64,000 bases of DNA, from contig JADLDI010000048.1 in NCBI GenBank assembly GCA_020846745.1, positions 3-64,002 on the forward strand, read 5' to 3'. Below are positions 1,363 through 63,794 of this stretch, piece after piece. The stretch is from Bryobacterales bacterium. GTDB lineage: Bacteria > Acidobacteriota > Terriglobia > Bryobacterales > Bryobacteraceae. The notes under the pieces are model-generated. The model did no database searches, had not been told where the DNA came from, and saw only the letters and a program-made list of their open reading frames with translations. Position numbers and translations under genes: made by a program. Numbering within the stretch: position 1 is the first letter of the stretch; the number at the start of each line of letters is the position of its first letter.

Positions 1363-2508
1363 TTAGCTTAGGCTTAGTTTCACCCAACCGGCTAAGGCGC
1401 CGGGTTGGTTGCCGGTGAATACGACTTGTCGTGTTTTGGGGAACGGGAGACCGGTGCGGATGGCGCGGGCGTAGTAGGGTTGCTCGGCCATGATTTTGCG
1501 ATAATTTTCGTCCTGCACCTTGGGCCAGGCGGTTTTGCCGAACAGGCCGGTGCCCCAGCCCAGGGCCAGGAGGCACGAACCGGATGCGGAGGCTTCGGCC
1601 AGGGTGTGGTCCAGTTTGTCTAACGTCCTCAAGAGCGGCGTCAGGCCGGTCATGGTGGCGAACTGGCGGTGGGCGGCCAGGGCCTGTTTAGCGTAATCGT
1701 TGGCGGCGGTAAGCAGGCGTTCACGGGAAAGAGGTCCTCGCCAGTGGAGGGCGCGGACGATTTCGGGTTTGCTGTAGAAATCGTTTTCTTCCCAAGCGCC
1801 TTCGAAGGCGGAACCGGGTTGGGCCATTTCGGCGAACAGCGGTGTGCTGTCTTCGATGCGGCGGGAGTCGACGGAACCGCGGCCGCTTTGCTTCCAGCCG
1901 AGGCCGATGCCCTTCTGCGGCGGGCGCATCTCGACCAACGTGGCCGTACGAAGCATGTAGACCTTGAGCGTGTTGACGGGCACCGTGCGCGAGTCGCCGA
2001 CGCCTAAGGCCTTTAGCAAGTCAGCACCACTGCGGCCGGCTTCCTTGTGCATGGCGCGCGATTCGAAGGCATCGCCGGGGCGGCGTTGACCGGCCGCGGC
2101 TTCCAAGGTCTTTTCGTCGGCCGCGGCGGCCAGGAGGGCGGTTCGCAGCGCGCCTTTGAGGGCGCTGCCAGGGAGATAGGGTCCGCCAGTCAGCGTGGCG
2201 AAGGTCGGGATGAAGCAGCCTTCGGCCGGCAGCTTTTCCCAGTATTGGGTGTAGTTGGGATGCTCGAAGGGGATGCGGCGGCCGGCGAAGTTTTGGGCGA
2301 AGCCGCCCCAACTGGCGAAGTCGAGTTTGTCGGCCTTTTTGACCTGCGCCAGGTAGTTATCGAGCCGCGAGCCTTTGGCGAGGAGGCGGAAGATACGCTT
2401 CTGGTCGAGGACGTTGACCTGGTCTTTCCAGACCATGTAATCGATGGGGGCCAGCGCGGCGCCATCGCCCACGAGGGTCGGCGTCAGCACTTCGAGACGG
2501 TACTTCAT
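1363..2508 (-). CDS. csm5: type III CRISPR RAMP protein Csm5
   Basis: 381 aa. N-terminus KYRLEVLTPTLVGDG, RAMP loop YLPGSALKGALRTALL, LALGWGTGLFGKT, and C-terminal FPKTRQV...LAGWVKL are typical of Csm5. Its start overlaps the csm4 stop as ATGA (plus-strand tcat at 2505-2508). The ORF-track start at 2523 is an alternative. Confidence 0.8.
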   Translation of the reverse strand: MKYRLEVLTPTLVGDGAALAPIDYMVWKDQVNVLDQKRIFRLLAKGSRLDNYLAQVKKADKLDFASWGGFAQNFAGRRIPFEHPNYTQYWEKLPAEGCFIPTFATLTGGPYLPGSALKGALRTALLAAAADEKTLEAAAGQRRPGDAFESRAMHKEAGRSGADLLKALGVGDSRTVPVNTLKVYMLRTATLVEMRPPQKGIGLGWKQSGRGSVDSRRIEDSTPLFAEMAQPGSAFEGAWEENDFYSKPEIVRALHWRGPLSRERLLTAANDYAKQALAAHRQFATMTGLTPLLRTLDKLDHTLAEASASGSCLLALGWGTGLFGKTAWPKVQDENYRKIMAEQPYYARAIRTGLPFPKTRQVVFTGNQPGALAGWVKLSLS

Positions 2509-3545
2509 ACGTTCACCCGCCACGGCAGCGGCACGGCTACCGCGAATCCATTGCGATAGACAGGATGGGCAAAGCCTTCGGGCGCCACGTTGGGGGCGCT
2601 ACCCAGGGGCGGCTTGGCAGATAGCAGCACCGAGCCTTCACGCACCATCGCGAGCGCCTGCTTTTCGGTGCCCCACCCGGCTCTGCTTTCGATACGGCCG
2701 GTGCGGTCCATTAGCGAGAAACTGCCACGGTTCCAGTCGACCTGGTCGGCTTCGCCGGGGCAGAAGGCGGAAAGCAGCCAGTACGACGTTTCGGGGGTGG
2801 GCGCGCCTTCGTTTTCCGGAGCGGCTTTGGCGTTGCCCAACACGAGATTCGGCAACGCACCGGGCGTGATGGAGTCTACGGTGAAGTGTCCCCAACCGGT
2901 GCTGCGCTTGCCGCCGACGCCGGTATCGCCCAGCAGGCGCAGGGCGCCTTCGAGGCGGGCGCTCCATTGATCGCGAGCGGCATCGTTGGCGAATTCGGCG
3001 ACGAACCAGAGCCAGGCGCTTTCGGCCCACTCGATGCACGCGGTCTGGTGGGTGTTGATTTTGCCTGGTTCCAGACGGTCGACCGCGGCGTGGCTACGCA
3101 GGGCGATGCGATAGGGACCGGTGCGGGACGAGCGGCGGCCGCGGCGCAAGAGGCAGCCACTGAAACCGTCGACTTCCCACTGATCTTCGTTCCACGACCC
3201 GCCGGCGGCGAGCTGACCGACGAGGTACGCGGGGATGTAGTGCGCCCCTTCGACGCAGAGTTTGCCGGAAGCGTTGGCGGGAGGCCAGACGTTGGCGGGC
3301 GCGGGGACGAGCAGCGCATCGTCGAGACCGAAGAAGAGGGACGACAGGCGGACGGCGGGTTCGGCTGTGGCCGCGGTGGCCGTAACCCACTCGTCGAGCC
3401 ACCCCAACTGATCCATCGCCGCGGTGACGGCCGAGTACCACGAATCGCTGTGGAGGATGCGGTCGACACGGTCGCGCGCACCGCTATCGGCACCCATGCG
3501 CCACGGACCAGTCGGCTTCAATTTGGCCAGCAAAGCCACTGACAT
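2505..3545 (-). CDS. csm4: type III CRISPR RAMP protein Csm4 (Cas5 family)
   Basis: 346 aa. Motifs LKPTGPWRMG..HSDSWYSAVTAA, LSSLFF, glycine loop GDTGVGGKRSTGWGHF, and C-terminal YWLLSAF...REGSV. It occupies the canonical slot between csm3 and csm5. Confidence 0.75.
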   Translation of the reverse strand: MSVALLAKLKPTGPWRMGADSGARDRVDRILHSDSWYSAVTAAMDQLGWLDEWVTATAATAEPAVRLSSLFFGLDDALLVPAPANVWPPANASGKLCVEGAHYIPAYLVGQLAAGGSWNEDQWEVDGFSGCLLRRGRRSSRTGPYRIALRSHAAVDRLEPGKINTHQTACIEWAESAWLWFVAEFANDAARDQWSARLEGALRLLGDTGVGGKRSTGWGHFTVDSITPGALPNLVLGNAKAAPENEGAPTPETSYWLLSAFCPGEADQVDWNRGSFSLMDRTGRIESRAGWGTEKQALAMVREGSVLLSAKPPLGSAPNVAPEGFAHPVYRNGFAVAVPLPWRVNV

Positions 3546-3565
3546 TGGTTTGCCCGGTTCCGATC

Positions 3566-4402
3566 CTACTCGCTCAGCTTGGCGGCGAAGTCATCGCCGC
3601 GGGCGAGCGATTGGACAGCCCCGAGGTCGGCCCCGGCGAGCAGTTCGGTTTCGGCGGCGCCGGCGGCATAGTAGCCGCGGCCGCGCCAGCGCAGGCGGAG
3701 GTTGGAGAAGTGCACACGGCCGGAACCGCGCGAACCGCCGCCACCGAGGGTGTCGTCTTCGAGGAGACGCAGACCTTCGGCCAAGCGGGCGAGCAGGACC
3801 TTGTCCTCTTCGCAGAGGACGTCGAGCGTCATACGGACATGGAAGCGGGCGCCTGCCGGCACGCGTTCGAGGGTGCGCGGGTTGGCTTGCGAGGTAATCC
3901 GGTCGATGGCGTTCTCGCTCTTCACCTCGGTGAGTTCGTCGTCGAGGTTTTCGCGCATGGCGGGTGTGATGGAATCCGGGTCGAGCGGGGCGTCGTACAC
4001 CGTGAGCCGGGAGGGGCTGGCCGAGGCGCCTTCGATGATGTCGCCCGAAACGCGATCCATACGGCCGGGATTGCGGCCGAACAAGAGGCAGATTTCGTCG
4101 TCCGGCCGGTCACTCTGGTGGATGCGAACCTCCTGGCCTTTGCGGCGCGACAGGTAGACGAGTTCCGAAGGGACGGCGAGGCCGTTCGACTGTTCGAGCA
4201 GTGAGCGGAGACGTCCGCGCAGGGTGCTGCCGGGAACGTAGGGACGTCCGAAGGCATCCTTGACGACGGGATTGTCGGCGCCGCCGATTTCGAGCGAGCC
4301 TTTGCCGGCTCCGACATGCAAACCTGTGTCGCAGTGCAGTTCGCCTTCGAGCAACAGCTTGCCAATCAGCTTCAGCTCAGTTTTGGCAGTATGAGCACTC
4401 AT
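3566..4402 (-). CDS. csm3: type III CRISPR backbone RAMP Csm3 (Cas7 family)
   Basis: 278 aa. Motifs LIGKLLLEGELHCDTGLHVGAG, EIGGADNPVVKD, GRPYVPGSTLRGRLRSLLE and GGGGSRGSGRVHF. The Asp of the GGxDNPV loop, equivalent to the catalytic D33 of S. thermophilus Csm3, is present. Confidence 0.9.
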   Translation of the reverse strand: MSAHTAKTELKLIGKLLLEGELHCDTGLHVGAGKGSLEIGGADNPVVKDAFGRPYVPGSTLRGRLRSLLEQSNGLAVPSELVYLSRRKGQEVRIHQSDRPDDEICLLFGRNPGRMDRVSGDIIEGASASPSRLTVYDAPLDPDSITPAMRENLDDELTEVKSENAIDRITSQANPRTLERVPAGARFHVRMTLDVLCEEDKVLLARLAEGLRLLEDDTLGGGGSRGSGRVHFSNLRLRWRGRGYYAAGAAETELLAGADLGAVQSLARGDDFAAKLSE

Positions 4403-4417
4403 GTGTGTTCCCTCTTC

Positions 4418-5104
4418 CTACTCGTTGTAAGCGACGATGGCTTCAAACAGATCGCGGAACCGCTCGTAGCCGCGGAGGTCGTTTTTGCGGGTGACCTGGA
4501 GGAGCAGCTTTTCGAGCGAATCGAGACTGCGTAGCGAATGACGCGCGATGGTGTACGCCAGGCGTGCGCGGAGCATGACGAATTCATGCTGGCGGTCGGC
4601 ATCGGCGGCGCGGCAGGCGCGGCGCACTGCATTGTAGAAGCGGCGGAGCTGAGACTTGGTTCCCGAATCCATGTCGCGCATACGGCTGACGACCGCGTGG
4701 GCCTGATTGTCGAGATATAAAGGATCGGAAATCAGCTTTTCGAGGTCGATTTCCGGGGGGCCTTCCATGCGGCCACCACCGCCGCCACCGGGACGGCCGA
4801 AGTCGCGACGGTCGCGTCCACCGCGATCACCGCCACGCTCACCACGGTCGCCACCACCGCCTTGACGTTCGCCGCCTTGACGTTCGCCACCGGGGCGACC
4901 CTCACGACGGTCGCCGCGCGGAGGGCGGCCACCTTCGCCCTGCTGGGACCGCGGCCCCTGAGCTTGGCCTTGGCCCTGCTCGCGGCGAGGCGGCTGTTGT
5001 TGGGGCGGTGCCGACTGCGCTTGGGGTTGCGGCGTTTCCTGCTGCTGGGGCGTTTCCTGCTGCTGGGGCGGTTGCTGCTGTTGATCTTGTTGCTCTTCAG
5101 CCAT
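4418..5104 (-). CDS. csm2: type III small subunit Csm2 (Cas11) with long N-terminal low-complexity extension
   Basis: 228 aa. The C-terminal ~115-aa helical part (TKSQLRRFYNAVR...LRARLAYTIAR) is Csm2-like and sits between cas10 and csm3. The N-terminal ~110 aa is Q/P-rich, then RG/RGG-rich. Confidence 0.65.
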   Translation of the reverse strand: MAEEQQDQQQQPPQQQETPQQQETPQPQAQSAPPQQQPPRREQGQGQAQGPRSQQGEGGRPPRGDRREGRPGGERQGGERQGGGGDRGERGGDRGGRDRRDFGRPGGGGGGRMEGPPEIDLEKLISDPLYLDNQAHAVVSRMRDMDSGTKSQLRRFYNAVRRACRAADADRQHEFVMLRARLAYTIARHSLRSLDSLEKLLLQVTRKNDLRGYERFRDLFEAIVAYNE

Positions 5105-5117
5105 CGGTCGTTACCTC

Positions 5118-6773
5118 TTATGCACCCTGCTCAGTTTCGAGATTGGACGCGGGTTCCGCGTCTGAGGGTGATGGTTGTTCCTGAGCCGGGGCCGTTGTTT
5201 CGGCGGTCACCGGCGATTGTTCGATTTCTTCGGATTCGGTTGGGGCAAGTTCGGGGGCGACAGCGTCGACGGTCGGGGTTTCCGATCGCTCCCTTACCGT
5301 CGCGGCTCCGTTCGTTTGGAGTGCCGCGGGGGTGGGGGTTTCTTCTATCGTGCAGACGGGACCGGCCAGCAGACGCGCCCATTCTACGGCGACGCGCCCG
5401 GCGGGACGAAGCTTTACCTGCGTGGACGACTTGCCTACGATGTCGGTAATCAGGGCCTTCTGCAGGCGCTGGAGTTCGCGGTCTTTGTGTTCGCCGAGCA
5501 CTACGGCGAGGCGGCGATAGTAACGCCAGGGGCGATCGGCACGGCCGGAGGGCTTTTCGCGGTAGAAGGCGCTGAGCTCGCTGAGGAACTCGGGCGGACA
5601 GTCGTACTGGCGGACCATGCGCATCATGAGTTCCTTGAGGTCCGAGGCGTGGTTGACGTGGCGCCATTCGACGGTGCGGCCGAAAATTTGGAGGCAATCC
5701 TTGTCGGCGGCTTTGGCGATATCGAGGCTGCGGCCAGCGGCTTCGAAGACGAGGCCAAATGGCGCGTCGACTTCGGGGGCCAGTTCCAGGGCCATGGTGA
5801 TGGTTTTGCCTTCCGGCCCGGGAAGTTCCTTTAGATTCGCTTCGGCAAAGCGGTGGAAAAGGCGCTGCATCTCGCGGGCGAGTTGGAGGAGGGCGTCCCA
5901 GGTTCCGTATACGGCGAAGTCATCTTCACCGGACCAGAGGACGGAGACCTTGCGCCAGAAGTCGGGCATGGAGCACGCGACTTCGAGTTCGCCGGCGAAG
6001 AACTGCTGGAACTGCAGAGTCAGCTGCAGGTACTCTTCGATAGTTTGGGCACGGCGGAGGCGGATGCGGAAACCGTCGACGGCTCCGCGGAGGATGCCCC
6101 ACATGGCATGTCCGGGCGCGCGCTGGGCGAGTTCTTCGACGGTGGCGGTATGGCCCGCGTCGTCGAGCGCGGCATGGCGGGCTACGGTGATGCCGTCGGC
6201 AGTGCCCGCGGCCCAGGTATGCTTACCTTCGTCGATGAGGACGCGGCCCGGCGTGTCGGGCGACCAGCCAAAGGTGCGGGCTTCGCGAACCCGGGGCGCC
6301 AGGTAGTCGCTGAAATAGGCGCTGTCGGCCGCGGCGCTACCGATGGACCGTGGAGCGAACGAGCCTTCCGCGACCGGAACGGTGTTTTCGCGCCGCCACA
6401 TCTCTTCGGCGAGGCGCTTGCGCACGATTGTCCAATCGCCGAGATTTTCCGTGCCGGCCCATACCAGCCGCAGCATTCCGCCGCCGGTTTCACGGATAGC
6501 TTCGTTGGCTGCTTTTAGAAAAGCTTCGGCTTGCGGAACGGCTTCAGCCGGGAGAACGAGAAAGAAGTTGCCGCCACCGGAGCTACCCAGCAGGATACGC
6601 GCAAGGCCGAGTTCGGCGAGCAGGGCACGGGGTAGAACCTCGCTTAACAGCGCCGCCCAATGCGCCCGTCCCGCCACGAGAGCCTGGCCGGCCGGTTGCC
6701 CGGTAGGCGCATCACTTGGCAGGAACCGCTCGATCCCGAGGAGTTTACCTTGCAGAAAGATTTGTACCGACAT
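5118..6773 (-). CDS. cas10: minimal Cas10 (Csm1-like) lacking an HD domain
   Basis: 551 aa. It starts directly with Palm1-like FLQGKLLGIERFL..AGRAHWAALL..SSGGGNFFLVLP. The second palm carries GILRGAVDGF and WSGEDDFAVYG, so the GGDD position reads GEDD. No N-terminal HD motif and no CxxC pairs are present. The C-terminal ~76 aa form an acidic/Pro/Thr-rich tail. Confidence 0.75.
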   Translation of the reverse strand: MSVQIFLQGKLLGIERFLPSDAPTGQPAGQALVAGRAHWAALLSEVLPRALLAELGLARILLGSSGGGNFFLVLPAEAVPQAEAFLKAANEAIRETGGGMLRLVWAGTENLGDWTIVRKRLAEEMWRRENTVPVAEGSFAPRSIGSAAADSAYFSDYLAPRVREARTFGWSPDTPGRVLIDEGKHTWAAGTADGITVARHAALDDAGHTATVEELAQRAPGHAMWGILRGAVDGFRIRLRRAQTIEEYLQLTLQFQQFFAGELEVACSMPDFWRKVSVLWSGEDDFAVYGTWDALLQLAREMQRLFHRFAEANLKELPGPEGKTITMALELAPEVDAPFGLVFEAAGRSLDIAKAADKDCLQIFGRTVEWRHVNHASDLKELMMRMVRQYDCPPEFLSELSAFYREKPSGRADRPWRYYRRLAVVLGEHKDRELQRLQKALITDIVGKSSTQVKLRPAGRVAVEWARLLAGPVCTIEETPTPAALQTNGAATVRERSETPTVDAVAPELAPTESEEIEQSPVTAETTAPAQEQPSPSDAEPASNLETEQGA

Positions 6774-6855
6774 GGTCTACGTACGCGGGGCGGCCCGCTG
6801 GCACCAAATCTCTCAATGTAGCAGGATCGCCGCATAGCAAGCTACCGCCATTCGA

Positions 6856-6976: not shown

Positions 6977-9900
6977 CTACCGCGCTACTTCTGAGACGCA
7001 GGCGAGGCGGCTGAAGTACCCCTTTTGGAAGACGGGCGGCGCGCCGCCCATATCGAGGTCGAAACGGACGGTGAGAGGCTTGCCGCCGGGAAGTGTGACG
7101 GGATCTTTGCCGATGCGGATGACCCATTCGAGACTGGCGGTGCTGCCGGTTTGGCGCCATTGTTCAGCCTTGCCGAAGAACTGCCAGACAGCCCAGAGAC
7201 CGTCGTTGGTTGACCAGGCGAGGTCGGGCCCGCCGCCGAAGCGGACGGTCGCCTTGGCTTCGTGATTGCCGCCACCTTGCCAGATGAACTGCTTGGCCGC
7301 GGCCGTTCCGCCTGTGTAAGTGAGGGTCTGACCGTCGAGCGAGAGACCCACCGTCTGAATTCCTTCCACCGGCACCGGCTTCAGCGCATAAGTGAGGCGC
7401 GGTTCCTGCGAGCCGTCGGGATAGAAGGCGCTGGAGAGGGCGACGGCCTGATTGAAGAACGAAACAAAGGCCGGGCTGAGAGAAACGGTTCCACCGGAGG
7501 CGGGTACAAACTGGGTGCCCTGCTGAATCAGATACTTCTTCAGGCTGCCCTCGTAGAGGGCCCACAGCGCTCCTTCGGGCTTTTTGAAGACCTTGTTCAC
7601 GTCGGCCACCGACGCTTGAATGGTCGCGTTCGAGTTGAACGGATACTTACTGATGAGCGACCGGTACTCACTACAGAAGCCTTTGCCCTTGTCGTTGAGT
7701 TCGGCGGGGCCGAGGCTGCGCAGCAAGGCTTCGACGTTGGTGATTGGATCTTCGAGTAGTTTTTGAACCGTTGCCTCGGCATGAGCGTCGGGGTCGATGC
7801 GGAAGGATTGGGCTAACTGCCGCGTAGTTACTTTGGCGTTGGTGGCGTTCTGCAAGGTCTGCATGGCGGCGGCTTCGCCGGGTTGAGGTTGGCTAGCGAC
7901 GCCTTCGACCGCGGTTTGCAGGGCGACCAGCGCGTTCATATAGGGCTGGTTAGGACCGGCGATATAACGGTCGACGCTGGTAGGCGGAACCACGGCATGA
8001 ATCGGCTGGAACGTGTTTTTCACGTCAGCGTTATCGACATCGGTGTTCTGCGAAGCAAGCCAGAACAAAGCCAACAACGGCGACTGGTTACCGGAGAGGG
8101 TATTAAGTTTCTTACTCGCGTCCTGCAGGTTTGCGTACTTCACGACGGAAGCGGCTTTGAGGTAAGCGCGCCACTGGGAGATGAAGTCGTTGTAATACCT
8201 GTCGGCGAGTTGCTTGCCTAACTGGGCGCGATCGAGGTTGGCGGAGGCCTGGTCACCCAAAACCCACTGTTCACCGCGGAAATACTTTTCGGGGTTCTTC
8301 AGCGAGTTTTTCATGAAATTCCAGCCGGGCTTGGTGAAGGCGCCGGCGATGTCGCGACTGTCGATGACGACTTCGGCAGAACCTGGGAATTTCTTGTTGA
8401 AGTTGACGGAAGGGGCCGTACGGGCGGCGTCGGCCAGCATTGCCTGGTAGATCGGCTCGAAACTGTTCGACTGGGCCAGATACTTACGCGCGGAGGAGAT
8501 CGACGCACTGTCGTTATCGTTGGTATAAGGATTGGCCGCGATGAGTTCTTCGCTATAGAACTCAAATTGCTTTTCAGCTAACTGGCGGCGGGTTGGGTCG
8601 ACCTCACGGCCGGCGGCCCAGTATTTGACCAGGACGGGGGCGAGGAACTCGCGGGTGCTCTTGTCGTGGTGGGAGGTGGTGATGAGATAGGCTTTGAGGG
8701 TTTCGTAAGTGTCGTTGGCGTTGGGTGTGGACCGGACTACAGACAGCACGTTGGTTTGGGTCTGCTCGAAGAGTAACTTACGGAACCCATCGAAATAGGC
8801 ACGGCGGACGGAATCGTAGAGGGAATCGCCGACGTAGAGACCCCAGCGGTAACTCAATCCCGGACCTTCGCGCAGAGTTACGAGGACCTGGCGAAGGGTG
8901 TCGAGGCGCTGCAAAGCATCGAGGGGGGCGAGGTTGCCGCCGGTGGCGGGAAGACCTTGGATGCCCTCCGCGGCCTGCTTCACCTTCGATTCGAGGGCTT
9001 TGTTGCGGGCAAACGAGACGACGAGAGCACCGGCGTACAAGACGCAGGCTAAGATGCCCAGGGTCAGGAGCATGCGTTGGAGCGACCGGCCCTTGACGCT
9101 GGCGCCACTTGCGCCCATGGCAAGTTGGTCGCCGAGGAGAATGTCGTTGAAGAGGTGGCCGAGGAACACCCACTGGGGAACCTTCTTCTTGCCGACAATG
9201 CGAGGGGTGGAGGAGGCCGCCGCGGCGCGCTGCTTGAAGATACCGGTGGCTCCGAACTTATCGTCCGCCTGGGCAGCAGGCGCGGGAGCTACTTCATTGA
9301 CGATGACCGGACGGACGCCGCTGAAATAGAAGCCACGCAGGAACGGCCCGGCGTTGAGCTGGCTGGGGCGGCATAACTCGACCAGGAACTTAACGAGCGG
9401 GGTGCGGAGTTTGCGAAACTCGCGGGGGAATTCGTAGATGCCGGAACGCAAGCCGGGGTCGTTTTCGCGGGAGAGCAGTTCGGGACGGCCGTTGGCAAGT
9501 TTGCGAATCAACTCGTCGAACGAGCCGTTGAGGCGGGCGGTCTCTTCTTCCTGATAAAGACCTTTGCGGTCTTCCATCATGGGGAGGGTGGCTCCGACGA
9601 TCTTGGTGGCTTCTTCGTTATTGAGGGTTCGGACGTAATCGTCGAAGAAAGGCAGCCTGTCGGACCGGGTGAATAGTACGTAGACGGGAAGGTTGATTCC
9701 TAACTGCTGGGAAATCTCGGAGAGGCGTGTGCGGAGGTTGCGGGCGGAGGTGGCGAGTGCGTCGGCGCCGCCGGCGACAACGAGACTTTCGGTATCGATG
9801 CAGACGAGGGCGGCGCGGGCCGGTTCCCGTCCGCCGTGCAGCATGGCGGCGATGCGGCCCGACTGGGTACGTTTGAGGATGCGGACCCAAGCGCCGGTGT

Positions 9901-10396
9901 CGGGAATGAGTTTGCCCGCGCCTTCGACAAAGAGGGTGCGGCGGGCGTACCACAGGTTAGCGGAGGCGGTGGGTACGATGGCGTTTTCCGCGTAGACCTG
10001 ACCGGCGAGCAGTTCGGCCTCGGTTCCGGAGTTGACGATGGTGGTGGTTTTGGCAGCGCCCTGTTCACCGATGACAAAGATGGCGGGCAGGGTGGAGAGC
10101 TTGGCGTCTTTCTCGGATTGGGCGGTTTTGAGGCGCTGGTCGGCTTCGCGAAGCACGAGGTCGAGATCGTCGGCTCCGACGCTGGTGGGGGCGGCACCGG
10201 CGGCAGCACCGCCGCTTTTCTTTCTGCGGTCGAGCCAGGTCAGAGCGCCTGTCACAACGAGGCCGACGACTATGACAAACGCCTGAGCGATGTAGACGTT
10301 GCCGCCCGCCAGAGCGGTAACCATGCCGCGAAGCGGGTAGAGCGCGACCGTAAGAACGATAACAAGGCCGGTAATGATGAGGTAAGTAACTTTCAT
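6977..10396 (-). CDS. tssM: type VI secretion membrane-complex protein TssM (IcmF family)
   Basis: 1139 aa from MKVTYLIITGL. It has N-terminal TM helices and a P-loop-like FVIGEQGAAKTT, then WYARRTLFVEGAGK, followed by ImcF-related and IcmF C-terminal-like regions. The ORF-track N-terminal extension to 10714 is Arg-rich and overlaps tssL. Confidence 0.9.
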   Translation of the reverse strand: MKVTYLIITGLVIVLTVALYPLRGMVTALAGGNVYIAQAFVIVVGLVVTGALTWLDRRKKSGGAAAGAAPTSVGADDLDLVLREADQRLKTAQSEKDAKLSTLPAIFVIGEQGAAKTTTIVNSGTEAELLAGQVYAENAIVPTASANLWYARRTLFVEGAGKLIPDTGAWVRILKRTQSGRIAAMLHGGREPARAALVCIDTESLVVAGGADALATSARNLRTRLSEISQQLGINLPVYVLFTRSDRLPFFDDYVRTLNNEEATKIVGATLPMMEDRKGLYQEEETARLNGSFDELIRKLANGRPELLSRENDPGLRSGIYEFPREFRKLRTPLVKFLVELCRPSQLNAGPFLRGFYFSGVRPVIVNEVAPAPAAQADDKFGATGIFKQRAAAASSTPRIVGKKKVPQWVFLGHLFNDILLGDQLAMGASGASVKGRSLQRMLLTLGILACVLYAGALVVSFARNKALESKVKQAAEGIQGLPATGGNLAPLDALQRLDTLRQVLVTLREGPGLSYRWGLYVGDSLYDSVRRAYFDGFRKLLFEQTQTNVLSVVRSTPNANDTYETLKAYLITTSHHDKSTREFLAPVLVKYWAAGREVDPTRRQLAEKQFEFYSEELIAANPYTNDNDSASISSARKYLAQSNSFEPIYQAMLADAARTAPSVNFNKKFPGSAEVVIDSRDIAGAFTKPGWNFMKNSLKNPEKYFRGEQWVLGDQASANLDRAQLGKQLADRYYNDFISQWRAYLKAASVVKYANLQDASKKLNTLSGNQSPLLALFWLASQNTDVDNADVKNTFQPIHAVVPPTSVDRYIAGPNQPYMNALVALQTAVEGVASQPQPGEAAAMQTLQNATNAKVTTRQLAQSFRIDPDAHAEATVQKLLEDPITNVEALLRSLGPAELNDKGKGFCSEYRSLISKYPFNSNATIQASVADVNKVFKKPEGALWALYEGSLKKYLIQQGTQFVPASGGTVSLSPAFVSFFNQAVALSSAFYPDGSQEPRLTYALKPVPVEGIQTVGLSLDGQTLTYTGGTAAAKQFIWQGGGNHEAKATVRFGGGPDLAWSTNDGLWAVWQFFGKAEQWRQTGSTASLEWVIRIGKDPVTLPGGKPLTVRFDLDMGGAPPVFQKGYFSRLACVSEVAR

Positions 10397-10407
10397 CGCG
10401 CTGCTCC

Positions 10408-11133
10408 CTATACTTTCGCCTTCGAAGTAGCGGTGACGGCGCGAACTTCGTCGGCCCCGCTGCCGAGGATGACTTTGAAGGCGACGAAACAGAGTACGAC
10501 GGCGACAACGCAAACGGCCGCGGCGATTTGAAGGCGCTTCACCCAGGGGTCGGCGGCAACGGGTAGAACGGCGCTGTCCTGAACGAACTGGGTGAATGGA
10601 TCGGAGCTGACGCCGCGGATGCGCTCTATTTTGTCGGCCACCATCCTGGTGACGGTTTGCAATTCGGCGCGGCCGCCGACGCTGTAACGCCCACCGAAGC
10701 CAAGCAGGAGGCACAGGAGATAGACTTCCAGCAGATCGGCGAGATCGTAGCTGTCGGGCCGTTGGAGTAACTGTTCGACGTTTTGGAAGAACAACTCGCC
10801 GGCCATGTGAATGCCGAATAACTCTTCCTGCAACGGCTTGCGCGACCAGCCGACAAACATCGGGCTGCGCGTGTTCAACACCGACTCGTCGAGAAAGCCG
10901 ACGAGCGCAAGCGTAGCCATCTTGATATCTTCGGTGGAGTAGCCGCCTTTACTACGAGCCTCCTGAATGGCGGCTTTGAGGGCCTCGCGCATGCGGACGC
11001 GAAACGATTCGGCATCGTTGATCTCTTGCCGATCGGACCGCAGACGTACGATGGCCGTCAGTACTTCCTGAAAAATGAGCGCGAGGTTTTCCGATCGCAT
11101 TTTACCCGTGGCGTTCCCAGCTTCCGGTTTCAT
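10408..11133 (-). CDS. tssL: type VI secretion protein TssL (DotU family)
   Basis: 241 aa. DotU signature LALVGFLDESVL..W..LQEELFG...GELFF..LADLLEVYLLCLLLGFGGRY plus a single C-terminal TM. There is no peptidoglycan-binding extension. Confidence 0.85.
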   Translation of the reverse strand: MKPEAGNATGKMRSENLALIFQEVLTAIVRLRSDRQEINDAESFRVRMREALKAAIQEARSKGGYSTEDIKMATLALVGFLDESVLNTRSPMFVGWSRKPLQEELFGIHMAGELFFQNVEQLLQRPDSYDLADLLEVYLLCLLLGFGGRYSVGGRAELQTVTRMVADKIERIRGVSSDPFTQFVQDSAVLPVAADPWVKRLQIAAAVCVVAVVLCFVAFKVILGSGADEVRAVTATSKAKV

Positions 11134-11173
11134 CCCCTTCGTCCTCTAACTAACAACTAACTAAATAGTGCGA

Positions 11174-12517
11174 CTACCGTTCCAGAACGGCGAATAATTC
11201 CAGTTCCGCATTGGGCAATTCGGCGGGCACATACACGCCGACGCGCTGCGTCTGGACGATGTGGTCCCAGAACGGCCCTTCGCGGGAGACGCTGAAATAC
11301 TGCGAAGTCATTTGCATGGGCACGGAACTGGGGGGCATCGGCATGTGCGTCAGCGCCAGTCCCGCGATGGCACGCCTGACCAGTTCGCCCACGAATTTGG
11401 CGGAGCAAACCTTAACGAGCTGAGGCGTGCGCGCAATCAACTCGGGTTCGCCAACAGCGGCATGAATACCGAGAATCCACCGCGCCCTGCCGAGCGAGCG
11501 CGAATCGGAGACGTCGGCTTCCCAGAAACAGTCGGCCGTTTTGGCAAGCGGAATAGCAATACAGTTGGTGGGCACCACGGTTTCGAGGTTGGCGCGGATG
11601 TGGCGGTCCAATTCCTCGAAGCAGGCCTCCGGCCGGTCGTGGTCGTAAACGGGGAGATTGCGCGGGTGGGCGTCGAGCGAGAAGGTGCATAGGGCGCCGG
11701 CGAGGCGCGACATCTCCAGGTAGAGTTCCTCCGGGTGGCCGCGCTTGGTCATCCACAGGTGGCGCAAGGCGGAAAGACCGGAATTGGTGCAGTGGAGGAG
11801 CCAGAAGTTGGCAACCTCACGAGGGGAAAACTGAGTGCCGCTGGCGATACCGGCGGCGGCGCGTCCGAGGCTGGAGCTTTTGGCCTCGAGGATTTCGATG
11901 AGACGGCGGACGAGCAGCATCAGCCGCTCACTGGCGCGGATCTGCAGGCAGGTGGGAATGAAGTCGGAATCGTAGACGAAATGACCGGCGCCGTCGCGCT
12001 TGATACGCGCAACGGGCAGGGAAATCACGTCCTCGTTCAGTTCGCTTTCGAGAAAAAAGCGGATATTCTTGCGGCCCAGTTTGACGCCGCGGGTATCGGT
12101 GCCGGTGGTTTCGTCGGTGATGTCGCGTTGTTCGGCGACATATCGCGCTTCGGCCGTGAGGGCCGGGCTACAGTTAGCTCCCTGTGGCTTGCGCTTTTGC
12201 AGGCCGAGGAAGAGGGTCACGCTTTCGGCAGTGGGAGGGAAATCTTCCACAATCGAGCGGACGGGCGGTAATTGGTCCGCCTGAGGCATGTGGAACAAAG
12301 CGCCGTCGGGAAAGATGCCGCAGGCGTGGGTGAGACTCAGGGTTCCATTCCGAAGCGCATCGCCGTCAAGGGAGACGCCGGTGAGGCCATAGCCGCGGAA
12401 CCACAGCGAGTTGGTGGCGAAATGGATGGAGTCTTCGAAATACCGGCTCTGCGCCTGAAACTCGTGTGGTCCCAGGTACATACCTTCGGACCATACAACT
12501 CTCGACAGAAGTTTCAT
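11174..12517 (-). CDS. tssK: type VI secretion baseplate protein TssK
   Basis: 447 aa from MKLLSRVVWSEGMYLGPHEFQAQSRYFED, the classic TssK N-terminus. The ORF-track start at 12562 is an alternative. Confidence 0.9.
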   Translation of the reverse strand: MKLLSRVVWSEGMYLGPHEFQAQSRYFEDSIHFATNSLWFRGYGLTGVSLDGDALRNGTLSLTHACGIFPDGALFHMPQADQLPPVRSIVEDFPPTAESVTLFLGLQKRKPQGANCSPALTAEARYVAEQRDITDETTGTDTRGVKLGRKNIRFFLESELNEDVISLPVARIKRDGAGHFVYDSDFIPTCLQIRASERLMLLVRRLIEILEAKSSSLGRAAAGIASGTQFSPREVANFWLLHCTNSGLSALRHLWMTKRGHPEELYLEMSRLAGALCTFSLDAHPRNLPVYDHDRPEACFEELDRHIRANLETVVPTNCIAIPLAKTADCFWEADVSDSRSLGRARWILGIHAAVGEPELIARTPQLVKVCSAKFVGELVRRAIAGLALTHMPMPPSSVPMQMTSQYFSVSREGPFWDHIVQTQRVGVYVPAELPNAELELFAVLER

Positions 12518-12633
12518 AGGGCGATCTGCAATAGATCCGGCGGCAATGGAATACTGTATCATAGGCGGCGTTTCCCAGCCACGACTTTCGGTACGGTCCC
12601 GAATGCCTGGACTGTCAGTTTAGCGAGTGAAAA

Positions 12634-15369
12634 ATGATTCTTCATCAAAGGTTTGAAGCCCCTGACGCACTGCCGGCCCAAGCGCCGGCGAACGCGGATT
12701 GGACGCTGCCGGGCCGCGACCGGAGCACCGGAAATGCGGTCGCGATTCATCTGCTGGCCGGGGCGGATGAAGCGGCCAACGAGGAGATGTTCCGGAACCT
12801 GGCCGGCCGGCATCAGGTGTTGTCGGCGGCGGACTGGAACGGGCGGACATGCATCATCACGGAACCGCTGCCGAGCGGGCTGCATGTCCGGACTTGGATA
12901 AAGGGTTTGTTGGAGGAGGCGGCGGATCCGCTGGCGCGGGCGGGAGTGTTTCGGATCAAGCCGGGTCCACCGCCGGAGACTGCGGTGGAGACGCTGAAGC
13001 CCGGCCCACCGCCTGAGCCGGTGGGCGGGTTTACGGATATGTTCAACGCTCCGGCTGTGCCGTCCGCGACGCAGCCGGGCGAGTTTACGCGGATGTTCCA
13101 GGCGAAGCCGGTGGTCCGGGCTGCCGTGGAAATCGGGACTGAAGGGAGGGCGGCGCCCAGAGGTGAGCCGACCCCGGCCGCCGGCTTACCTGACGAGTTG
13201 CCCACGCAAGCGATGCCGGCACTGCGCGCCGAGCCTTCCGGTGTGACGGAACCGGGGGAGTTTACCCGGATGTTCGCAGGTCCGCCACCGCCACAGAGTG
13301 CAACGCCACCGCCGCCGAGTGCTCCGCCACCGCCGCAGAGCCTGCCGGATGATCTGCCGACGGCGGCTATTCCTGCTCCGGTGGTACCGGCACCGCCGCC
13401 TGTGGCCAAGGCGGAACCGGGGGAATTTACACGGATGTTCGCGGGTCCGCCGACGCCACAGAGTGCTCCGCCACCGCCGCCGAGTGCTGCGCCGCCGCAG
13501 AGCCTGCCGGAAGATCTGCCGACGGCGGCTATTCCCGCTCCGGTGGTCCCGGCACCGCCGCCAGCGGCCAAGGCGGAACCGGGGGAGTTCACGCGGATGT
13601 TCGCGGGTCCGGTGGCAACGCCACCGCCGCCGAGTGCTCCACCGCCGCAGAGCCTGCCCGAAGATCTGCCGACGGCGGCTATTCCCGCTCCGGTGGTCCC
13701 GCCACCATCGCCTGCGGCCAAGGCGGAACCGGGGGAATTTACGCGGATGTTCGCGGGTCCGCCGGCGCCGCCACCGTCGCCGAGTGCAACGCCACCGCCG
13801 CCGAGTACTCCACCGCCGCAGAGTCTGCCGGAAGATCTGCCGACGGCGGCTATTCCCGCTCCGGTGGTCCCGCCACCATCGCCAGCGGCCAAGGCGGAAC
13901 CGGGCGAGTTTACGCGGATGTTCGCGGGTCCGGTTGCGCCGGCGCCGCCGCAGAGCCTGCCGGAAGATCTGCCGACGGCGGCTATTCCCGCTCCGGTGGT
14001 CCCGCCACCATCGCCAGCGGCCAAGGCGGAACCGGGGGAGTTCACGCGGATGTTCGCGGGTCCGGTTGCGCCACCGCCGCCGAGTGCTCCGCCACCGCAG
14101 AGTCTGCCGGAAGATCTGCCGACGGCGGCTATTCCCGCTCCGGTGGTCCCGGCACCGCCGCCAGCGGCCAAGACGGAACCGGGGGACTTTACGCGGATGT
14201 TCGCGGGTCCGGTCGCGCCGCCGCCGCTGCAGACGTTGCCGGAAGATCTACCGACGGCGGCTATTCCCGCTCCGGTTATCCCGGCACCGCCGCCTGCGGC
14301 CAAGGCGGAACCGGGGGACTTTACGCGGATGTTCGCGGGTCCGCCGGCGCCACAGAGTGCAACGCCACCGCCGCCGAGTGCTCCGCCACCGCAGAGTTTG
14401 CCGGAAGATCTGCCGACGGCGGCTATTCCTGCTCCAGTGGTCCCGCCACCATCGCCGGCGGCCAAGGCCGAACCCGGGGAGTTTACGCGGATGTTTCAAG
14501 GACCGCCTGCGCCGAGCGCGGGGCCCGCTTCGGGACCCCTTGGTCCGGCCCCTGGTCCGGCCGAACCCGGCGAGTTCACGCGAATGTTCCAGGGCAGTGC
14601 GCCGGCCGGTGGTGCATCGAAGGGCGGTGTGTCCGAACCAGGTGAGTTCACGCGGATGTTCCGGCCGGGGGGAACGCCACCCGCGCCGCCTCCGAATCCA
14701 GCGGCGGCTCTGCCACAGTACGCGGCTCCGACGCCGGCCGGGGATGTCCCGCAATTTTTCAATCGGCCGCCGGAGATGGCCTTATCGGAACCAGCCAAGG
14801 CCGCCGGGGGTGCGCCGGCTTCAGAGTTCACGCGGATGATGCACGGTTTCAACGAACCGGGTGCACCGGCGGAGCGGCCGCTGTTTCCAAGTGCGGGACC
14901 GCCTCCGCCGAAGACGGGCCAGGGCGAATTCACGCGGATGCTGGAGACGCCGCTGCCGTCGCTAAAACCGGGGCAGCAGTTTACGCCGCCGCCATCCGGA
15001 GCGGGCCGGGGCGAGCCGGGCGAGTTTACGCGGATGCTCGAAGCGCAGGTGGATGCAACGCCACGGGGATACCGGCAATCGAGCCGGCTGCAGTCCGGCG
15101 GAGATGCCACGCAGGCATTTTCGATGAACGAATTGCCGGTTGCGCCGCCGGCGGGGCCGGAGGAGGGGACGGCGTCGGGGGAACCCACGGAGAGTGAATA
15201 TACGAAGCTGTTCAAAGCTCCGCCGAAGGCCCCTGCTGCGGCACCCGCTCCGGCGGCGGTGAAGCCGGTGATTAAACAGAAGACCGGCAGCTACACTCCG
15301 CTGATCGTGATTGCGGTGCTCCTCTTCCTGGTTATGTTCGGCATCATTATCTATCTGTTGGCGCGGTGA
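12634..15369 (+). CDS. tail-anchored repeat protein with ~17 (G/S)(E/D)FTRM(F/L) motifs
   Basis: 911 aa. It has a ~110-aa N-terminal globular region, then Pro-rich spacers alternating with EPGEFTRMF motifs. It ends in one TM (YTPLIVIAVLLFLVMFGIIIYLL). It is divergent from tssK with a 71-nt (ORF-track start) to 116-nt (preferred start) gap. Confidence 0.8.
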   Translation: MILHQRFEAPDALPAQAPANADWTLPGRDRSTGNAVAIHLLAGADEAANEEMFRNLAGRHQVLSAADWNGRTCIITEPLPSGLHVRTWIKGLLEEAADPLARAGVFRIKPGPPPETAVETLKPGPPPEPVGGFTDMFNAPAVPSATQPGEFTRMFQAKPVVRAAVEIGTEGRAAPRGEPTPAAGLPDELPTQAMPALRAEPSGVTEPGEFTRMFAGPPPPQSATPPPPSAPPPPQSLPDDLPTAAIPAPVVPAPPPVAKAEPGEFTRMFAGPPTPQSAPPPPPSAAPPQSLPEDLPTAAIPAPVVPAPPPAAKAEPGEFTRMFAGPVATPPPPSAPPPQSLPEDLPTAAIPAPVVPPPSPAAKAEPGEFTRMFAGPPAPPPSPSATPPPPSTPPPQSLPEDLPTAAIPAPVVPPPSPAAKAEPGEFTRMFAGPVAPAPPQSLPEDLPTAAIPAPVVPPPSPAAKAEPGEFTRMFAGPVAPPPPSAPPPQSLPEDLPTAAIPAPVVPAPPPAAKTEPGDFTRMFAGPVAPPPLQTLPEDLPTAAIPAPVIPAPPPAAKAEPGDFTRMFAGPPAPQSATPPPPSAPPPQSLPEDLPTAAIPAPVVPPPSPAAKAEPGEFTRMFQGPPAPSAGPASGPLGPAPGPAEPGEFTRMFQGSAPAGGASKGGVSEPGEFTRMFRPGGTPPAPPPNPAAALPQYAAPTPAGDVPQFFNRPPEMALSEPAKAAGGAPASEFTRMMHGFNEPGAPAERPLFPSAGPPPPKTGQGEFTRMLETPLPSLKPGQQFTPPPSGAGRGEPGEFTRMLEAQVDATPRGYRQSSRLQSGGDATQAFSMNELPVAPPAGPEEGTASGEPTESEYTKLFKAPPKAPAAAPAPAAVKPVIKQKTGSYTPLIVIAVLLFLVMFGIIIYLLAR
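13249..14497 (+). repeat. intragenic near-identical tandem DNA repeats (9 units of 126-171 bp)
   Basis: GAACCGGGGGA(G/A)TT(T/C)AC(G/C/A)CGGATGTTCGC recurs at about 13249, 13414, 13576, 13726, 13897, 14029, 14173, 14299 and 14470. Each unit encodes LPEDLPTAAIPAPVVPxPPPAAKAEPGEFTRMFAGP with a variable Pro-rich linker. Confidence 0.85.
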
Positions 15370-51231: not shown

Positions 51232-51453
51232 ATGTCCAGAGCGGCTGTCGATAACAATGAGCGTTTGAAAGTCAGGCTGCGGCGGGCGGTTAAAGCAGCG
51301 CTCGTCCGGGAGGCGGCGGTAAAAAACACAGATCTGACGGATTTAGTCCTCCAGCCGGGGCTACGCGAAGCCAGGGCGGTGGGCCGTCAGGGCCGTCAGG
51401 GCCGTCAGGGACAGCCAGTGCGCCGGGATAAACCGGCATGTTGTAGGGGATGA
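51232..51453 (+). pseudogene. TacA/DUF1778-like RHH antitoxin N-terminal fragment
   Basis: ERLKVRLRRAVKAALVREAAVKNTDLTDLVL aligns by eye with the DUF1778 pattern (L.lR......l...A......TDFVL). Similarity ends at the (GGCCGTCAG)3 repeat, and no GNAT toxin follows. Confidence 0.4.
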
Positions 51454-51696
51454 AAGAGCCCTGCAGGAAAGGAGAAGCGACTCCATCCTGACCTCGAGTC
51501 TTGCAGCGGATGCCGCGAGGTAGACGTTGAAGCGTAGACAGAGGCAGCAGTGGGCGGGGTATCGAGCTTCGAAGATCAAGATCCGGGCGCCGACCCTGTG
51601 GCTGTAGCGGGAAGGCAACACTGGCGATTGGCGCAAACTCGCTAGCCAACGCTGGGCCCGGCGTAGTCAAAGACCCCACGCACGCCGCGAAACAGC

Positions 51697-52423
51697 ATGC
51701 ACGAGAACCGGGAGACCTCCAAGGCGCCTGCGCAAGGAGCAGGCCGGTCCGGGAAGGCCAATAACCACAATCCGGATATGCACGTCTTGGAGGAGTCGGA
51801 CTGCGCCATAGTACCAATGAAGCAATCGAACAACGGGCCGTCGGACGGTCCCGCGGAGGTTGCGGAGGGAAGGGCGCGGACCAAGGAGAACGACGCAGAA
51901 CCTCACAGGAGCCCGACACAGAGCGGGGAACGAATGTCGCAGGGGTTAGGCGGCGTGCGCCAGCGGGCGCGGGAGGGTAAGCAGGAACGGTTCACCGCTT
52001 TGCTGCACCATCTAACAGTCGACTTACTTCGGGAAAGCTATTACGCGTTGAAGCGGAACGCCGCCCCGGGTGGATGGCCAACGATGGGGCGAGTATGAAA
52101 CCGGCGTGGAAGATCGACTCCAAGATCTCCATGGCCGGGTGCATCGTGGAGCGTACCGTGCCAAGCCGTCGCGAAGAGTCTACATACCGAAAGCCGATGG
52201 CCGGGAACGGCCGTTGGGCATTGCCGCGCTGGAGGATAAGATCGTCCAGCAGGCTATGGTGACCATCCTCAATGAGATATACGAGGTGGACTTTCGAGGC
52301 TTTAGCTATGGGTTTCGGCCTGGGCGCAGCCCGCATCAGGCGCTGGATGCGCTGAGTGCGGGCATCTACCGGAAGCGGGTGAACTGGATACTGGATGCCG
52401 ACATTCGGGGGTACAGTTCATGA
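51697..52423 (+). pseudogene. group II intron reverse transcriptase/maturase, frameshifted and 3'-truncated
   Basis: ESDCAIVPMK, VAEGRARTKEN, FTALLHHLTVDLLRESYYALKRNAAPG, then in another frame VDGQRWGEYE...RRVYIPKADGRERPLGIAALEDKIVQQA...FRGFSYGFRPGRSPHQALD...LDADIRG (RT domains 0-3 only). Confidence 0.8.
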
Positions 52424-52810
52424 ATGATTTCAGCAGCGGCGAATGGAGCATGGCCGAGCTCTGCCGGTTCTACGGCATCACCCGCGCGACCGGCTACAAA
52501 TGGATCGAGGGGGACGAGTCAGGCGGCGTGGAAGCTCTCCGGGATCAATCCCGCGCTCCGCGCCATCATCCGAACGCCATCCCCGTCGCTACCGAAAAGC
52601 TGGTGCTGGCCCTGCGCAGACAACACCCGACGTGTGGCGCGCCGAAGATCCGCGCGCGTCTCGGCATTGATCACCCCGCAATTGGCCGTGCCGGCGGAGA
52701 GCACCATTGGCGCGATCCTCCAGCGTCACGGATTAACGATCCCGCCTAGCGCCAATCGGCTGGCCCGGGCCGCCGTTGAGATCGTAAGTCCTCTTGCGTG
52801 CCGCAGTTAG
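52420..52810 (+). pseudogene. IS481-like transposase N-terminal fragment (frameshifted, lacks the catalytic core)
   Basis: MAELCRFYGITRATGYKWI..GVEALRDQSRAPRHHPN...LRRQHPTCGAPKIRARL, then frameshifted AVPAESTIGAILQRHGLT. No DDE/rve region follows. Confidence 0.65.
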
Positions 52811-63033: not shown

Positions 63034-63794
63034 GTGCTGCACGCGATGTCAAGCAAGCGCTCAACGGGTACCTCGGAGAACTCTACTTGCCGGCGATCCG
63101 CGAGTGCTTTGAAGATAAAGCGCGCCAGGCGGAACGGGAGACGCTCAGCTACGAGCCGTATCTGCTGGAGTTAGTAGAGCGGGAATGCCAGCAGCGGCGT
63201 GAGAATCGCATAGAACGGTTGCTGCGCGCGTCCAAGCTGCCTTTAGAGAAGACTCTCGAAAGCTTCGACCTGAAACGACTGCCCACGAAGGCCGCCCGAC
63301 AAGCCAAAGCACTGCTGGATGGCACCTTTCTGGACCGCAAGGAGAACGTGCTGGCCTTTGGCAATCCGGGCAGCGGAAAGACGCACTTACTCTCGGCGGT
63401 CGGGCAGGAACTGATCCGCTTGGGGCGGCGGGTGGCCTTCGCCACCTGTGTCCGGCTTGTCCAGGATCTTCTGCGAGCCAAGAAAGAACTATCTCTGAGC
63501 CGGGCCATCAAGAAGCTGGCCTACTACGAGGCGCTCGTGATCGACGACATTGGCTACGTGCAGCAAAGCCGCGAGGAGATGGAGGTGTTATTTACACTGC
63601 TGGCCGAGCGTTACGAACGTGGCAGCGTGCTCATCACTTCCAACCTTCCGTTCTCCAAGTGGGAAAACATCTTCAAGGACCCGATGACCACGGCCTCGGC
63701 CATCGACCGGCTGGTGCACCATAGCGTGATCCTCGAACTCAACATCTCGAGCTTCCGCATGGAGCAAGCCAAGCAGCGGAAGGCTGAAGAGTAA
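63030..63794 (+). CDS. istB: IS21-family helper ATPase IstB
   Basis: Walker A GNPGSGKTHL, Walker B LVIDDIGY, and ITSNLPFSKW. Confidence 0.95.
   Translation: MSAARDVKQALNGYLGELYLPAIRECFEDKARQAERETLSYEPYLLELVERECQQRRENRIERLLRASKLPLEKTLESFDLKRLPTKAARQAKALLDGTFLDRKENVLAFGNPGSGKTHLLSAVGQELIRLGRRVAFATCVRLVQDLLRAKKELSLSRAIKKLAYYEALVIDDIGYVQQSREEMEVLFTLLAERYERGSVLITSNLPFSKWENIFKDPMTTASAIDRLVHHSVILELNISSFRMEQAKQRKAEE

Follow-up and report, generated by a model that had tools for sequence, protein, structure and literature searches.

In the current understanding, type III effectors either belong to adaptive CRISPR loci or draw on CRISPR RNAs (crRNAs) supplied by co-resident arrays. Here we describe a reduced effector operon of the Csm type from a Bryobacterales bacterium (Acidobacteriota; contig JADLDI010000048.1 of assembly GCA_020846745.1), of which a stretch of 64,000 nucleotides, referred to below as the window, was analysed; it represents practically the whole contig (64,006 bp). 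The closest described systems are the type III-A (Csm) complexes of Enterococcus italicus, Thermococcus onnurineus and Streptococcus thermophilus (PDB 9g9a, 6o7d, 6ifn), which consist of the same five subunits encoded in the same order, and III-A Csm complexes are the best matches of the Bryobacterales cassette in hidden Markov model (HMM), profile-profile and fold comparisons. The likeness extends to the catalytic loop of Csm3 and to the Palm2 motifs RGDVDxFG, GGDD and AK, all of which are conserved in the Bryobacterales family. In contrast to III-A Csm, the Bryobacterales Cas10 lacks the N-terminal HD region of about 260 amino acids and the CxxC...CxxC zinc finger, and the locus is devoid of cas6, a CRISPR array, cas1/2 and csm6, the cassette being fixed in a single bacterial order. 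The operon consists of five open reading frames (ORFs) on the minus strand (1363-6773), which are packed tightly or overlap and whose coordinates were verified:

5118-6773, minus strand: cas10/csm1, 551 amino acids (PF22335 Palm2, 4e-9; TIGR02578, 4e-36; also PDB sequence matches, AlphaFold2 and Foldseek)
4418-5104, minus strand: csm2, Cas11 small subunit, 228 amino acids (PF03750, 4e-11; TIGR01870, 7e-11; PADLOC Csm2, 2e-14)
3566-4402, minus strand: csm3, Cas7 backbone RNase, 278 amino acids (TIGR02582, 6e-58; PADLOC Csm3, 1e-58; best PDB match 4qts_C, 8e-40)
2505-3545, minus strand: csm4, Cas5, 346 amino acids (TIGR01903, 1e-32; PF17953 Csm4_C, 9e-11)
1363-2523, minus strand: csm5, Cas7-like cap, 386 amino acids with a GTG start at 2523 (TIGR01899, 6e-18; PADLOC Csm5, 2e-26)

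The initial annotation, made from the sequence alone, had read the gene order as cas10-csm2-csm3-csm4-csm5, and profile searches uphold all five assignments. The scores of Csm2 to Csm5 exceed the curated cutoffs; Cas10 reaches 124.9 bits against the TIGR02578 cutoff of 170, because the match is restricted to its C-terminal half (model positions 482-749). For csm5, public gene calls take the ATG at 2508, and the exact 381-amino-acid product is on record. The Csm3 loop EIGGADNPV aligns with the catalytic loop IGGxDNPV seen in solved structures of Csm3, and the motif EIGG[AS]DNP, with the catalytic Asp (Asp43), is present in 78 of 78 loci, as had been suggested for the single protein. To the Cas7_IIIh model of PADLOC the window Csm3 scores only 3e-8, compared with 1e-58 to Csm3. 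The suggestion that the module falls outside subtypes III-A to III-F is not supported: by HMMs, profile-profile alignment and fold it is a type III-A (Csm) effector in reduced form, and III-A loci without an HD domain are common, accounting for 35% of the subtype (PMC11229360). Csm2 consists of a conserved core (residues ~131-227) preceded by a low-complexity extension of about 120 amino acids (Q/P-rich, then RG/RGG-rich; 4745-5104, minus strand), whose length differs between species from none to about 240 amino acids; this extension and the C-terminal tail of Cas10 carry opposite charge.

The N-terminus of Cas10 reads MSVQIFLQGKLLGIERFL, and the protein is organized as follows:

residues ~1-110: Palm1
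residues ~111-225: linker domain free of Cys
residues ~226-361: Palm2
residues ~362-470: helical domain D4
residues 473-551: tail

The tail (79 amino acids; 5118-5354, minus strand) is rich in acidic residues, Pro and Thr, is confined to the clade of the window sequence (P0001-P0006) and is disordered in an AlphaFold2 model built from a 28-sequence family alignment (predicted template modelling score 0.77). The best 50 PDB matches of this model in Foldseek all belong to III-A Csm1, with E values as low as 1e-19 and TM scores of 0.61-0.68, and hhalign aligns the family with the nearest full-length Csm1 proteins (758-795 amino acids) over 455 columns with a probability of 100% and an E value of 2e-47. 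The alignment begins at canonical Csm1 position ~262-270, so that the entire HD region (LFHDIGK...) is missing; Cas10 therefore has no HD DNase, in agreement with the initial annotation. The cysteines of the protein (267, 360, 392 and 474) form no CxxC pair, no CxxC was found in any of 84 family members, and the Cys residues of the canonical Csm1 zinc finger CPVC...CxFC (C423/C426/C437/C440) have no counterpart in the family. That cas10 might be a 5'-truncated pseudogene, a caveat raised at the outset, is ruled out by three stops that interrupt the reading frame in the 70 codons preceding it, by a distance of only 203 bp to the tssM stop and by a start Met common to all 28 aligned relatives and to further relatives checked by regular expression; no in-frame HD-coding remnant was found upstream of cas10. 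The short N-terminus is thus genuine and native to the family.

This family is discrete. In an exhaustive search of 1.8 billion representative proteins, its members have 450-506 amino acids and score at least 250 bits, and the next matches are canonical Csm1 proteins, aligned over their C-terminal half only, at 28-32% identity. More than 2300 relatives are present in databases, with a median length of 484 amino acids among the best 120. The family escaped the main filters: NCBI labels these Cas10 proteins 'hypothetical' because their scores fall under the TIGR02578 cutoff (the exact Cas10 of the window is publicly annotated as 'hypothetical protein' in a Bryobacterales metagenome-assembled genome, MAG), and the largest type III census missed a mostly MAG-borne family of about 485 amino acids because Cas10 proteins below 500 amino acids and incomplete genomes were excluded (PMC11229360). 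Our literature search found neither a description of the family nor a paper linking Solibacter with Csm3 or Cas10, and the 2025 classification paper makes no mention of Solibacter or Acidobacteria (PMC12669027).

A scan of one genome per species returned 438 matches, almost all in MAGs of Bryobacterales, Bryobacteraceae or Solibacteraceae; those carrying the label Solibacteraceae are not grouped together. Of 88 loci that we retrieved, 75 contain the complete set of five genes in collinear order, whereas for the remaining 13 tblastn gave no match to one or more of csm2 to csm5. Within 10 kb on either side of the cassette, none of the 88 loci contains a CRISPR-like array (own array detector and Tandem Repeats Finder) or cas6; regular repetition is limited there to perfect tandem units of 60 nt and ~120 nt, which lack variable spacers and which we read as coding repeats. 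The same holds for the window, in which no CRISPR array was detected and in whose 53 other ORFs PADLOC and Pfam scans found no Cas6, Cas1, Cas2, CARF or SAVED protein; PADLOC likewise gave no match there to an effector responsive to cyclic oligoadenylate (cOA), whether Csm6/Csx1 or another CARF/SAVED protein. The module is therefore orphan and minimal within the 64 kb, as first proposed, and equally solo in the relatives examined. We found no Cas10 copies in viral contigs of IMG/VR, plasmids of PLSDB or phages of GenBank.

Gene neighbourhoods differ between species, with a type VI secretion system (T6SS) in the window and, among others, DnaB, PAS histidine-kinase, sulfatase and redoxin Pfam domains elsewhere. 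Clustering of the flanking ORFs yielded a single recurrent neighbour, an XrtA/PEP-CTERM-type ATPase (TIGR03015, 5e-87; 291.7 bits against a cutoff of 324.5) found in 25 of 84 loci, where it follows csm5 in the same orientation at a distance of 58-216 nt (L010, L014, L016, L018, L022 and about 20 more). We considered this AAA ATPase as a sixth cassette gene and rejected it in view of its type and the lack of support from defence models; we read it as ancestral synteny, and a functional link to the cassette may nevertheless exist. Since the ATPase-bearing loci span the deepest Cas10 divergences and the number of shared flanking genes rises with Cas10 identity, an ancestral chromosomal site and vertical descent are indicated. 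Upstream of cas10 we found one conserved element:

6812-6825, minus strand: promoter-like box CCTGCTACATTGAG, of the form TG-n-TACATT (extended -10-like), with 41 nt between the hexamer and the ATG of cas10

Related boxes of the form TG-n-TAnAnT (TGTGCTACAGT, TGCTAGATT, TGGTAAAGT) precede cas10 by 35-60 nt in many of the 84 loci, and their conservation makes this a probable operon promoter. No conserved guide-like element flanks the cassette, the promoter-like box being the only element upstream, with nothing downstream. Taken together, these comparisons show the cassette to be lineage-wide in Bryobacterales and solo in all relatives examined, and they suggest that it was inherited vertically as a self-contained unit.

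The five genes are under purifying selection and are thus maintained, not decaying. Within the clade of the window (the window locus, L003, L004 and L007) the ratio of nonsynonymous to synonymous substitution rates (dN/dS) is 0.03-0.24 for all five, and for the least saturated pair (L003 and L007) it amounts to 0.11 for cas10, 0.03 for csm2, 0.06 for csm3 and 0.07 for csm4. Conservation is highest in the two filament proteins that contact RNA, Csm2 and Csm3: median identity to the window protein across loci amounts to 85% in the core of Csm2 and to 78% in Csm3, compared with 54% for Cas10, 48% for Csm4 and 53% for Csm5.

In the structures of the E. italicus complex (EiCsm; PMC11734703), Asp530 and Asp584 bind two Mg ions and Lys648 is catalytic; the triphosphate of the second nucleotide is contacted by Palm1 Asp256, Ser258, Lys382 and Lys385, its base by Gln261, Ser280 and Tyr580, and the other adenine by Tyr307, Phe538 and Ser556. 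We mapped these residues from EiCsm1 via PDB sequence matches and profile alignment onto 82 species-level Cas10 sequences of the Bryobacterales family. The Palm2 site as a whole is intact in 74 species. Its beta-1 Asp position is occupied by Asp in 76, by Glu in five and by Ala in one; GGDD is present in 75, the equivalents of Asp584 and Ser556 are kept in 81 and 80, respectively, that of Tyr580 is Tyr, His or Phe in 78, and both Lys residues are found in all 82. A neighbour-joining tree combined with parsimony suggests that the ancestral Palm2 site was intact and was departed from about four times, once in the clade of the window, whose members have GEDD or GEDG together with Ala or Glu at the beta-1 Asp position; on this tree GEDD is the derived state of a small clade.

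The Cas10 of the window carries SGEDDF at residues 281-286, as noted before, with GEDD at 282-285, conserved Lys323 and Lys354, and Ala231 at the Mg-binding beta-1 Asp position. On the grounds of GEDD the initial annotation had doubted cOA signalling. This reason is weak, because GEDD by itself is reported to be tolerated and is listed among the variants in loci with known effectors (PMC11229360). Ala231, which was missed, occurs at the position of EiCsm1 Asp530 in the window Cas10 only (one of the 82 species) and, to judge from the role of that Asp, is better evidence than GEDD for an impaired synthase. Ala231 and Glu283 together probably cripple the synthase of the window.

A different set of changes, located in Palm1, is common to the whole family. 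Whereas III-A Csm has the motif GDxSGIQ, the Bryobacterales proteins have QGKLLGIE, with the ligand replacements D256 to K in 77, S258 to L in 73 and Q261 to E in 74 of the 82 species, and the stacking Tyr is replaced by Ser (Y307 to S in 68); the window-equivalent residues are 10, 12, 15 and 64. In this respect the family resembles the Cas10 of the Bacteroides fragilis Cmr complex, which synthesizes SAM-AMP (S-adenosylmethionine-AMP) and likewise keeps the Palm2 catalytic residues while its second-substrate pocket is changed; in SAM-AMP synthases the altered pocket accompanies a non-ATP substrate (PMC10600005). The residues concerned are different, however (D70/E151 there, K10/L12/E15/S64 in the Bryobacterales family), and unlike the SAM-AMP loci the Bryobacterales cassette has no CorA, NrN or lyase partner nearby. 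By analogy, the Palm1 changes combined with retained Palm2 residues may point to a non-canonical substrate or product, which we regard as a lead and not as a result.

We therefore read the locus, with a probability of roughly 0.6, as a functional, chromosomally fixed III-A (Csm) operon that is neither a fragment nor a pseudogene and that represents the local copy of a vertically inherited five-gene Bryobacterales cassette. The five proteins would assemble a Csm-type ribonucleoprotein in which Csm4 and Cas10 would be placed at the 5' end of the guide RNA, Csm3 and Csm2 would form the filaments and Csm5 would cap the complex. The guide RNA would be supplied from outside the vicinity of the operon, either by distant CRISPR arrays or in the form of non-CRISPR RNA, and the complex would base-pair with complementary RNA and cut it at 6-nt intervals via Asp43 of Csm3. 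In most of the family, target binding probably triggers the synthesis of a nucleotide signal for an unlinked receptor, because the Palm2 set (beta-1 Asp, GGDD and two Lys) is intact, and the product may not be a canonical cOA, since the Palm1 pocket for the second nucleotide is remodelled family-wide. In the genome of the window, where the synthase is probably disabled, the operon would act mainly through the guide-dependent binding and cleavage of RNA.

Several points weigh against this interpretation. No guide RNA, cas6 or receptor has been found for the organism of the window. RNA cleavage alone is generally deemed a weak defence and would hardly account for the maintenance of the operon. 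The synthase might retain residual activity, given that GEDD is known from effector-bearing loci and that close relatives have Glu at the Asp530 position. Finally, a generic sigma-70 scan did not call the box upstream of cas10.

A possible but clearly less probable explanation is that the Csm complex has been domesticated and works independently of arrays, loading non-CRISPR cellular RNAs or none at all and serving to control host RNA or to sense innately. What speaks for it is a distribution that seems to be vertical and to span the order, together with remnants of an ancestral site, a promoter-like box of its own and strong purifying selection, a pattern unlike that of patchy, mobile defence islands. 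The absence of array, cas6, cas1/2 and CARF genes beside all 88 loci and the particularly high conservation of Csm2 and Csm3 fit the same idea. In concept it is analogous to the array-less type IV-B modules, a class 1 effector cassette without CRISPR array, cas6 and adaptation genes, for which the same question of the bound RNA arises. Type IV systems, however, have no Cas10 and are mostly plasmid-borne, whereas the Bryobacterales cassette has Cas10 and was found on chromosomal contigs only.

Type III loci that lack arrays or effectors, and Cas10 proteins that lack HD, are amply documented. Many type III subtypes are usually without arrays, and many ordinary array-less type III loci rely on crRNAs provided in trans (PMC12669027), which speaks against domestication. 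Hoikkala and co-workers (2024, PMC11229360) counted 133 of 1113 type III loci that are HD-less and cyclase-positive and have no known effector, and for such loci signalling or crRNA supply in trans has been proposed. The Bryobacterales Cas10, with its cyclase motif and without a known effector nearby, is like these, but the absence of partners is lineage-wide in Bryobacterales and not sporadic. The III-G and III-H subtypes (PMC12669027) share with the Bryobacterales family reductive evolution and the lack of an adaptation module; III-G loci are array-less, and the cOA pathway was lost. They are predicted DNA cleavers, with an apparently active HD domain and a lost catalytic Asp in Cas7, and are in this sense the opposite of the Bryobacterales family, which has no HD domain, keeps the Cas7 Asp, has a mostly intact cyclase site and consists of subunits that score as III-A.

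Two further points count against domestication: arrays are often missed in MAG bins, and the Palm2 catalytic set, which is kept in about 90% of the species, suggests a signalling output typical of defence. In favour of domestication, the complete 9.9-Mb genome of Candidatus Solibacter usitatus Ellin6076 was reported to contain no CRISPR arrays and three Cas genes, Acid_0892, 0893 and 0895 (PMC3174227), which hints at array-independent use. This numbering would fit a block of five genes, Acid_0891-0895, as a candidate copy of the cassette whose cas10 and csm4 had been overlooked. Bryobacteraceae strain F-183, which may carry the cassette too, has also been reported to be without CRISPRs. In its fullest form, a domesticated, array-independent III-A effector inherited vertically across the order, using non-CRISPR RNA and in most species a non-canonical nucleotide signal, the idea is likewise tentative, and we prefer to regard the locus as a functional III-A operon whose guide RNA may come from either source.

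The 1.36 kb between csm5 and the left end of the window, an extent given in the initial annotation, is not empty: a tandem repeat that had been overlooked lies at 474-1118 (123-bp unit, 5.2 copies, 85% identity). Further left the sequence cannot be read, because other assemblies of this organism end within csm2 or within the 123-bp repeat. A core of about 38 nt, CCAACCAAATCAACACTTTGCGAAACGAAGTCCCC, is present in seven copies on the plus strand (264-1160) and nowhere else in the window; the last five make up the tandem array and two extra copies begin at 264. The core varies in a codon-like manner ([QK]IN[TN]LR[ND]E[IVF]P), and the unit spacings of 125/123/123/121/123 break the frame. Scanning metagenomes, we found the core in three short, unrelated contigs only (L096-L098), with 2-4 copies each; in two of them three phased TTCGACAC repeats precede each core in an iteron-like fashion. 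It is very improbable that this repeat is an unconventional guide-RNA array of the Csm module: its location directly after csm5, the restriction of the seven cores to this spot and the non-conserved sequence between the cores of the metagenome contigs would agree with such a function, but whole units are about 85% identical and leave no unique spacers, so that it is not a CRISPR array, its period of 123 bp is far beyond CRISPR ranges, it matches no Rfam family and shows no consistent fold, no similar repeat accompanies the cassette in 84 other species, and the three core-bearing contigs are without csm genes.

Equally little credit can be given to the view that the operon is what is left, decaying and functionless, of a III-A locus that was formerly complete and whose cas10 was truncated and array lost. 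Although the locus has neither HD domain nor zinc finger, cas6, array or effector, and the Palm2 site is altered in the clade of the window, the five ORFs are intact, the low dN/dS values include cas10, architecture and start codon are the same across the relatives examined in a family of 438 genome matches, and there is no upstream remnant.

The surroundings of the operon contain the following features:

6977-12562, minus strand, directly upstream of cas10: partial T6SS cluster with TssM/IcmF (1139 amino acids in the public call), DotU/TssL and TssK/VasE
12634-15369, plus strand: 911-amino-acid ORF adjoining the T6SS genes on the opposite strand, with in-frame Pro-rich tandem repeats at 13283-14495 (units of 132-279 bp)
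51453-52810, plus strand: group II intron RNA (RF02005, 152 bits; 51453-51676) followed by reverse transcriptase fragments only (ORFs of 117 and 128 amino acids)
61540-63794, plus strand, right contig end: IS21-type pair, a 497-amino-acid ORF followed by a 254-amino-acid ORF with an IstB-like ATP-binding domain (PF01695, 6e-63)

The adjacency of T6SS genes and cas10 is specific to the organism of the window and absent from the other species examined; the T6SS genes were ruled out as a functional partner of the Csm module, the neighbours being different in every other species. The group II intron looks degenerate, and its 117-amino-acid reverse transcriptase fragment (52070-52423) gave a 'Cas1_IIIb' match, which we discarded since it covers the reverse transcriptase part of the model only (positions 34-143 of 617).

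The lineage-wide occurrence of the cassette is the more interesting fact here, more so than the oddity of a single locus. Purifying selection has apparently preserved a reduced Csm operon throughout an order of soil bacteria that are abundant, always alone and off the mobile elements searched. Should this operon function independently of CRISPR arrays, it would clearly exemplify a Cas10-containing effector diverted from adaptive immunity to another use, and cultured strains (Ellin6076, Bryobacter, Paludibaculum) would allow the source of its guides and the chemistry of its signal to be tested directly. If this is true, a class 1 CRISPR effector would have been exapted in Bryobacterales for a host function or for innate rather than adaptive sensing.

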